49,387 bases of DNA from an uncultured Dehalococcoidia bacterium (lineage in GTDB: Bacteria > Chloroflexota > Dehalococcoidia > Lucifugimonadales > OSU-TB39): contig CAZYCG010000003.1 of NCBI GenBank assembly GCA_964645865.1, positions 1-49,387 on the forward strand, in the 5' to 3' direction. Positions 8,900-9,958 of this stretch are shown here, one piece after another. The position numbers and the translations under genes were made by a program. Below the pieces are notes generated by a model, which was not told the DNA's origin, did not search any database, and saw only the letters and a program-made list of their open reading frames with translations. Numbering within the stretch: position 1 is the stretch's first letter; each line of letters begins with the position of its first letter.

Positions 8900-9958
8900 T
8901 TGACTGATAAGTCATCGAAATTCAAGTTGACTAGTCTTTCCAGCTGTGCTGGTTGAGCTGCCAAACTTAATCAAAAAGAACTGACGCAAGTTCTGCGTCA
9001 TCTACCTGTATTTAATGACCCTAATTTGATAATAGGGCATACCTCTGGAGACGATGCTGCCATTTATAAAATGTCAGATGAAGTTTCTCTAGTACAAACT
9101 GTGGATTTTTTCCCTCCTATCGTTGATGACCCAAACGATTACGGCGAAATTGCAGTATCTAACGCTTTGAGCGACGTGTACGCAATGGGAGGGAAGCCAT
9201 TATTAGGGATGAATATAGTCGCTTTTCCTGCAGAATTACCTAAGGACATATTAGGTGCGATATTGGCGGGTGGTGCTAATAAGGCTAGTGAAGCAGAGTT
9301 AATTATTGTTGGCGGCCATACGGTGACTGATAATGAACCTAAATATGGTCTTGCAGTCACTGGAATTATTAAACCGGGTTTAGAGATTACTAATTCGGGT
9401 GCAATGCCTGGTGATATGCTTATTCTTACCAAACCAATTGGCACAGGTATCATTACTACCGCTGGTAAAGCTGGAGATATAGAATCTTCGATAATGAACG
9501 AGTGTATAACATATATGAAACAATTGAACCGAAGGGCTAGCGAGATAATGCAAGATGTTGGAGTAAATGCCTGTGTAGACATAACTGGATTTGGGTTGCT
9601 TGGGCATTTGAATAATATGATTGTAGCTAGTAATGTACATGTTGAAATAATTGCTGGAAATGTACCCCTTATGTCAAATGTGATTCAGATAGCTAATCAA
9701 GGCATGATTCCTGGTGGTACTTATAATAATTTAGAATATCTTGAAGATTCAGTTGAATGGGGCGAAAATATAGATGATATTTTTAAAATGGTTCTTTGTG
9801 ACCCACAGACTTCAGGTGGACTATTGATATCAGTTCCTGAAGAAAAATCATCAATGTTACTTGATAAATTACTGTATTATGGAATCGATAATTCTGAAAT
9901 TATCGGGAAAGTGCACAATAAGGGTGAATTAGGTCTACGTCCTATTATTGTAAGTTGA
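8900..9958 (+). CDS. selD: selenide, water dikinase (selenophosphate synthetase), Sec-containing form (in-frame UGA 8954..8956 = codon 19)
   Basis: ORF track 9026..9958 has SelD motifs (DDAAIY, VDFFPPIVDDP.DYG.IA..NALSDVYAMGG.P, VDITGFGLLGH) but lacks the N-terminal catalytic loop. The same frame from TTG 8900 (GGAGG 8889..8893) gives TDKSSKFKLTSLSSCAG-TGA-AAKLNQKELTQVL. This aligns with E. coli SHGAGCGCKISPKVLETIL, with TGA at the Cys17 position and the catalytic Lys kept. Confidence 0.9.
8977..8999 (+). promoter_or_regulatory. candidate SECIS stem-loop for selD (two overlapping alternative hairpins)
   Basis: Either AGAACT(8977..8982)/AGTTCT(8989..8994) or GACGCA(8983..8988)/TGCGTC(8994..8999). 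Each is a perfect 6-bp stem starting 20-26 nt after the UGA. Not energy-evaluated. Confidence 0.5.

Follow-up and report, generated by a model that had tools for sequence, protein, structure and literature searches.

A probable selenocysteine-type selD gene with a CxxU loop in an uncultured Dehalococcoidia genome

The 49,387-nucleotide stretch of DNA analysed here (the window), from contig CAZYCG010000003.1 of an uncultured Dehalococcoidia bacterium (assembly GCA_964645865.1), very probably carries an ordinary selenocysteine-type selD gene of marine SAR202 bacteria (Chloroflexota, Dehalococcoidia), in which the in-frame UGA at position 8954 would be decoded as selenocysteine (Sec) by means of a hairpin at 8982-9000. 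The gene has an open frame on both sides of the UGA, belongs by sequence to the SelD family, places Sec and lysine at the catalytic positions, and is followed after the UGA by a conserved, covarying hairpin, while tRNA-Sec and selA are both encoded in the same genome. The loop that contains the UGA codon also holds a cysteine three residues before it, giving a CxxU motif that proves to be widespread among SelD proteins.

Reading frame and extent of selD

The ORF tracked by automatic calling (TTG 9026..9958) is the 3′ part of a longer selD frame, which begins at TTG 8900-8902, crosses TGA 8954-8956, joins the tracked ORF and stops at TGA 9956-9958. With TGA translated as U, the product is 352 amino acids long and its N-terminal sequence reads LTDKSSKFKLTSLSSCAGUAAKLNQKELTQVLRHLPVFNDPNLIIGHTSGDDAAIY..., so that the residues around the TGA are, in order, Cys16, Ala17, Gly18, the TGA itself (19), Ala, Ala and Lys22. 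The first-pass annotation had proposed that the tracked ORF lacks the true SelD N-terminus, and that the gene starts instead at TTG 8900 with a GGAGG 6 nt upstream. Both proposals hold: the frame runs unbroken from 8900 into 9026..9958, the coordinates of the start were confirmed, and the Shine-Dalgarno sequence and TTG are conserved within the genus.

The frame is closed on the upstream side by an in-frame TAA (8879-8881), and TTG 8900 is therefore the earliest possible start. Furthermore, AGGAGG followed by a spacer of 5-7 nt and TTG is shared by the three genomes of the genus, whose sequences diverge farther upstream, and it is for this reason that the start is placed at 8900. The features of the gene are collected in Table 1.

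Table 1. Features of the selD locus in the window.
Feature	Position	Strand	Description and basis
Shine-Dalgarno sequence GGAGG	8889..8893	+	6 nt 5′ of the start codon; sequence
Full selD coding sequence	8900..9958	+	352 codons plus TGA stop, TTG start; translation with TGA as U, TIGR00476, alignments
Cys16 codon TGT, the C of CxxU	8945..8947	+	three residues before Sec; translation
In-frame UGA, selenocysteine 19 (predicted)	8954..8956	+	at the position of Cys17 in E. coli and of Sec13 in Aquifex; alignment
Lys22 codon AAA	8963..8965	+	counterpart of Lys20, essential in E. coli; lies 5′ of the tracked ORF start
Bacterial SECIS-type hairpin	8982..9000	+	folding, bSECIS constraints, covariation in order relatives

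Assignment to selenophosphate synthetase and alignment of the active-site loop

By family criteria, the gene is assigned to SelD, the selenophosphate synthetase (selenide, water dikinase). The extended protein scores 368.8 bits against the SelD equivalog TIGR00476 (cut-off 125; residues 9-316) and 322 bits against NF002098 (cut-off 299). Full-length alignments were obtained with the SelD of E. coli (3u0o; E-value 8e-65) and, over residues 10-319, with that of Aquifex aeolicus (2yye; E-value 1e-64). The acidic motifs through which PurM-like proteins bind metal and ATP, sought in the regions of E. coli D51, D68, D91 and D227, are present in the alignment to both enzymes as GDDAAIY, TVDFF, SDVYAMGG and DITGFG.

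In these alignments the UGA falls in the column of E. coli Cys17 and of the Aquifex catalytic Cys/Sec, within a glycine-rich N-terminal loop that reads S-C-A-G-U-A-A-K. From the letters alone, it had been suggested that the TGA replaces Cys17 of E. coli, that the essential Lys20 is kept, and that the equivalent of Cys19 is alanine. The alignment to 3u0o bears out each of these points, Lys20 being matched by Lys22, three residues past Sec. The segment upstream of the tracked ORF likewise matches the N-terminal loop when the extended protein is aligned to Sec- and Cys-type SelD sequences, and the model match begins at residue 9.

Compared with the window protein, E. coli SelD has the same fold and catalytic motifs and a loop that aligns residue by residue, with Lys at +3 relative to the catalytic position, but it carries Cys17 in place of Sec, and the second cysteine of its loop (G-A-G-C-G-C-K) lies at +2, not at -3. 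The A. aeolicus enzyme is, like that of the window, a single-domain, Sec-type protein with a G-U-A-A-K loop and Ala where E. coli has Cys19, yet its residue at -3 is Ser (S-S-G-U), in contrast to the Cys of the window protein (C-A-G-U), and it works with this serine. It is said to contain Sec13 natively and to have been crystallised as a Cys mutant by Itoh et al. in 2009; its structures are PDB 2yye, 2zod and 2zau. Because the Aquifex sequence, in the crystallised mutant, reads S-S-G-C-A-A-K, alanine at the Cys19 position is normal for a characterised Sec-type enzyme.

Conservation of the UGA codon among relatives

A selD gene was found in 36 of 40 relatives from the same order, and every copy has exactly one in-frame TGA, always in the same column. 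The protein sequence is kept on both sides of this TGA at the 29 order loci that were read, and the 18 codons 5′ of it are kept as protein in every relative. The occurrence of TGA in 36 of 36 order relatives is far above chance and, together with its alignment to the catalytic Cys/Sec, upholds the original proposal that selD is Sec-encoded at 8954..8956.

The same picture extends to the phylum. An even draw of 400 Chloroflexota genomes yielded 298 with selD, from which the best 108 N-termini were read; 95 of these have an in-frame TGA at the Sec column, the other 13 being Cys-type. Most of the 298 selD-bearing genomes have TGA at this column, with the protein kept on both sides. In the assembly from which the window derives, TGA is otherwise a normal stop codon, ending 269 of 1051 long ORFs and also selD itself, whose terminal TGA at 9956 is not accompanied by a SECIS-type hairpin.

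A covarying hairpin at SECIS distance

The overlapping hairpins that had been noted at SECIS distance from the UGA (8977..8999) correspond to a real structure. In its best form, UGACGCA (8982-8988) pairs with UGCGUCA (8994-9000) in a 7-bp stem that closes a 5-nt apical loop, AGUUC (8989-8993), and an optional lower stem of 3 bp is formed by 8977-8979 with 9001-9003. The loop begins 32 nt past the UGA, farther from it than does the SECIS loop of E. coli fdhF. The predicted folding energy of -8.9 to -9.7 kcal/mol is, taken alone, unremarkable for AT-rich sequence (z = -1.7), and an Rfam scan of positions 8700-9200 returned only matches at chance level, with nothing resembling a bacterial SECIS family.

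The bSECISearch model, as summarised in PMC13188914, describes bacterial SECIS elements by a loop of 3-9 nt, a stem of 4-16 bp, a spacing of 16-37 nt and an energy of -7.5 kcal/mol or lower, with a G as the first or second loop nucleotide and, in most cases, a G or U after it. The hairpin downstream of UGA 8954 agrees with this model in every respect: its loop of 5 nt carries G at position 2 and U at position 3, its upper stem has 7 bp, its spacing is 32 nt and its energy is -8.9 kcal/mol.

It is the comparison with relatives that makes the case for a putative SECIS element. When 30 sequences of the order were aligned without gaps (A1; L020-L049), 82.6% of the cells in the corresponding 9-bp helix proved to be paired, whereas sliding the partners gave 25-43%. 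Changes on both sides occur in 7 of the 9 helix pairs, one such double change, from G-C to A-U at columns 31/45, being found in the window itself, and none of 500 shuffles reached the observed values.

Two mutually exclusive hairpin registers were observed within this one order (columns 20-48 after the UGA in the same alignment). Register A, with its loop at +37-39, covaries. Register B, formed in some relatives by pairing of columns 20-30 with 34-44, has its loop at +31-33, about 7 nt nearer the UGA, and covaries weakly; a few sequences, including that of locus L034, are able to fold either one. The registers look like drift of the SECIS element inside a conserved coding stretch, E-D-L-x-Q-V-L-x-Q. 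Register B was rejected for the window selD, whose sequence cannot form it.

Selenocysteine machinery and a second selenoprotein gene

The assembly is a metagenome-assembled genome (MAG) of 1.49 Mb in 115 contigs, with 35.6% G+C and an estimated completeness of 81%. It contains a tRNA-Sec gene (C1:60504-60597; 69.3 bits), called as SeC with anticodon TCA by ARAGORN, and selA (C50:6999-8327; 537.6 bits). A search of this MAG for selB by HMM did not find the gene, the best matches being IF-2, TypA and LepA, and tblastn with a same-genus SelB returned only the GTPase domains of these three proteins. However, the same-genus genomes G002 and G003 do carry selB, as does every order relative with a completeness of 90% or more. 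A shorter second match, which nearly all relatives give in the SelB search and which we take to be EF-Tu, is also not returned for the MAG (E <= 1e-40). Since the MAG is 81% complete and the presumed EF-Tu match is likewise missing, the absence of selB carries little weight, and such absences in this MAG are not to be read as biology.

A second selenoprotein gene, OsmC-like, lies 3 kb away on the minus strand (approximately 5545-5960), with its UGA at 5814-5812. A 6-bp stem (UUCUCC/GGAGAA) closes a 9-nt loop, UGUAUUGUC, which starts about 20 nt downstream of this UGA and contains GU. The loop is both larger than that of selD and closer to its UGA.

Decoding of UGA 8954

The reading that we favour would have translation begin at TTG 8900 and the hairpin, which lies within the coding sequence, recruit SelB carrying Sec-tRNA(Sec) to UGA 8954. 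Sec19 would thereby be inserted into the flexible, glycine-rich N-terminal loop; both the binding of SelB and the actual insertion of Sec are predictions from the conserved elements described above. In the finished enzyme, Sec19 and Lys22 would act as Cys17 and Lys20 do in E. coli, forming selenophosphate from selenide and ATP. TGA 9956, which lacks a hairpin, would end the protein, and the ORF called from 9026 would represent the usual shortening of a selenoprotein gene by gene-calling programs.

It could instead be supposed that TGA 8954 is a true stop, and that the locus is a pseudogene or encodes a truncated SelD-like protein translated from TTG 9026. The default ORF call does begin there, and the failure to find selB in the assembly would fit. 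A product from 9026, however, would have neither the catalytic Sec/Cys nor the essential lysine, and inspection of the sequence upstream of this TTG revealed no Shine-Dalgarno sequence. A stop codon is also at odds with the retention of the 18 preceding codons as protein and of TGA itself throughout the order, with the covarying hairpin 3′ of the TGA, and with the presence of selA, tRNA-Sec and another selenoprotein gene, all of which depend on SelD. We regard termination at this codon as exceedingly improbable. Reading of the UGA as Cys or Trp, whether by near-cognate or suppressor decoding or under a reassigned code, is very improbable as well. About one in four of the long ORFs, and selD too, terminates at TGA, and the genome has a bona fide tRNA-Sec together with selA, while genus mates possess selB and the SECIS-type hairpin is conserved; against these observations stand the missing selB and the occurrence in the phylum of Cys-type SelDs with the same loop, C-A-G-C-A-A-K. 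Decoding as Sec thus appears to be the best account of UGA 8954.

Distribution of the CxxU loop

According to a 2026 review, only one selenoprotein family is more widespread among prokaryotes than SelD. The first-pass annotation had considered the CxxU context of the window gene to be unusual, and had suggested a survey of other SelD clades. Among the 29 order loci that were read, 28 have a cysteine at -3 only (C-A-G-U-A-[AS]-K), none at +2 only and none at both, and the codon at -3 is TGT in some and TGC in others. The one locus with neither cysteine, L034 (genome G010), reads S-S-A-G-U-A-S-K. No other order member that was read departs from Cys at -3, and L034 represents a natural variant with no second cysteine inside the CxxU clade. 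On the SelD tree, a long branch of 1.3 changes per site leads to the genus of the window (window 8900-9958 compared with L046 and L048), and the amino-acid composition of its SelD deviates, in line with 35.6% G+C among order relatives that are mostly richer in GC.

In the best 108 Chloroflexota N-termini, Cys -3 alone occurs in 50 (42 Sec-type, 8 Cys-type), Cys +2 alone in 44 (41 of them Sec-type, mostly G-A-G-U-A-C-K) and neither in 14 (12 Sec-type), with no sequence having both; CxxU thus accounts for 42 of the 95 Sec-type SelDs in this sample, or approximately 44%. Similarly, 20 Sec-type copies read from Acidobacteriota divide into 10 with Cys -3 only, 4 with Cys +2 only, 6 with neither and 0 with both.

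An exact-pattern scan with L-T-x5-C-[AG]-G-U-A-x-K, using one genome per species, gave at least 120 matches, and at least 116 of the 120 listed are SelD. Those listed with a complete gene and placed on a tree come from at least 14 named phyla, which include Chloroflexota, Acidobacteriota, Verrucomicrobiota, Planctomycetota, Armatimonadota, Myxococcota, Gemmatimonadota, Nitrospirota and Methylomirabilota. Two matches, L104 (Brucella sp.) and L184, are chance occurrences of the pattern. A third, L129, from a MAG labelled Candidatus Saccharimonadales, is a genuine Sec-type CxxU selD; it is unexpected in a reduced CPR genome and may reflect a binning error. In the SelD N-terminal stretch, two named SAR202 records (L099 and L125) match the order relatives almost residue for residue, which supports a SAR202 identity for the source genome.

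The loop type is, moreover, not new. Zhang and Gladyshev (2008; PMC2398784) described CxxC in Ndh-SelD fusions and CxxU in a NifS-SelD fusion, and also reported single-domain CxxU selenoprotein SelDs from the Global Ocean Sampling survey, in whose surface-ocean reads CxxU made up about 5.6% of Sec-type SelDs. The window gene, with its marine origin, Sec-type sequence and CxxU loop, is an instance of that class, although the class is far commoner in the Chloroflexota and Acidobacteriota genomes sampled here than in those reads. The frequency of the motif in the order and in both phyla, its spread over at least 14 phyla and its publication in 2008 together run counter to the notion that CxxU is unusual: the Sec-type CxxU selD is ordinary, has been published before and occurs very widely.

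Several Acidobacteriota loci (L286-L291 and L312, in genomes G635, G559, G522, G489, G461 and G627) have the SelD domain at the C-terminal end of frames of 735-817 amino acids, following an N-terminal extension of about 400 residues. They probably correspond to the oxidoreductase-SelD fusions that earlier work has described. They are Cys-type with the loop G-[ML]-G-C-A-C-K, that is, CxC as against the CxxC described in the 2008 paper (PMC2398784), and several of the fusion-bearing genomes also hold a separate Sec-type selD. As this loop has no cysteine at -3, a tie between the window selD and the fusion class was considered and rejected.

A second cysteine at -3 or at +2

Cys -3 and Cys +2 were never found together in the approximately 280 SelD sequences that were read, which come from at least 14 phyla. 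The scan pattern allowed any residue at +2, yet among the matches listed this position is occupied by Ser, Ala or Gly only. The motif type tracks clades, with 5 changes on a tree of 61 rows and 14 on one of 180 rows. Only 3-5 well-supported independent contrasts are available, for which a sign test is uninformative (p about 1), and we therefore make no claim of functional exclusivity between the two positions, or of an exclusion beyond phylogeny. The never-both placement of the second cysteine is a small addition to the SelD literature considered here.

Whether Cys16 has a role of its own is finely balanced, and on the sequence comparisons made here we would put such a role at slightly below an even chance. 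Its spacing to Sec19 is that of a CxxU motif and is conserved, in a loop that lies outside any thioredoxin fold. The likeliest role would be to form a selenenylsulfide with Sec19, a bond for which the odds seem somewhat against, and which might shield the selenol or contribute to the hand-over of selenium; the cysteine at +2 may do the same in U/C-x-C loops of the E. coli type.

Conversely, there is about an even chance that selD is Sec-type as proposed but that Cys -3 lacks a function of its own, the CxxU having been inherited within a large SelD clade without being a redox motif. The clade-wise distribution of the motif types and the lack of significance in the contrasts with Cys +2 are what would be expected of mere inheritance. 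So too are the SelDs that do without a second cysteine, namely 14 of the 108 from Chloroflexota (12 Sec-type), that of Aquifex, and the order member L034 with its serine. Inheritance alone would fit less well with the retention of the cysteine in 28 of 29 order members and in 41 of 42 rows of the wider clade, despite branches of more than one change per site and synonymous TGT/TGC turnover at its codon. The count of 0 among about 280 sequences with cysteine at both positions also speaks for a function, as does the link drawn in the 2008 survey between CxxC/CxxU loops and SelD fusions with redox and NifS domains (PMC2398784).

Taken together, these observations raise the tentative and, in our view, rather unlikely possibility that the SelD loop needs at most one auxiliary cysteine, which some lineages place at -3 (CxxU/CxxC) and others at +2 (UxC/CxC), but never at both.

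Implications for annotation and for selenium delivery

Annotation of selD in this MAG should begin at the upstream start codon and read the UGA as Sec, and among the genomes sampled the same correction applies to essentially all of those from SAR202 and to most of those from Chloroflexota and Acidobacteriota. Because a SelD called from 9026 lacks the catalytic loop, metabolic reconstructions built on such calls could misjudge the use of selenium. The published share of CxxU can also be updated, from about 5.6% in surface-ocean reads to approximately half of the Sec-type SelDs sampled from Chloroflexota and Acidobacteriota, two large and mostly uncultured phyla.

Which compound donates selenium to SelD in vivo is still treated as an unsettled question in the literature (PMC13188914). 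In this respect, the complementary placement of the second cysteine, while not established as a rule, offers enzymologists a cheap hypothesis: if it is true, a single movable cysteine would suggest that selenium reaches SelD through a selenenylsulfide or persulfide-type step, or that such a step protects the enzyme.
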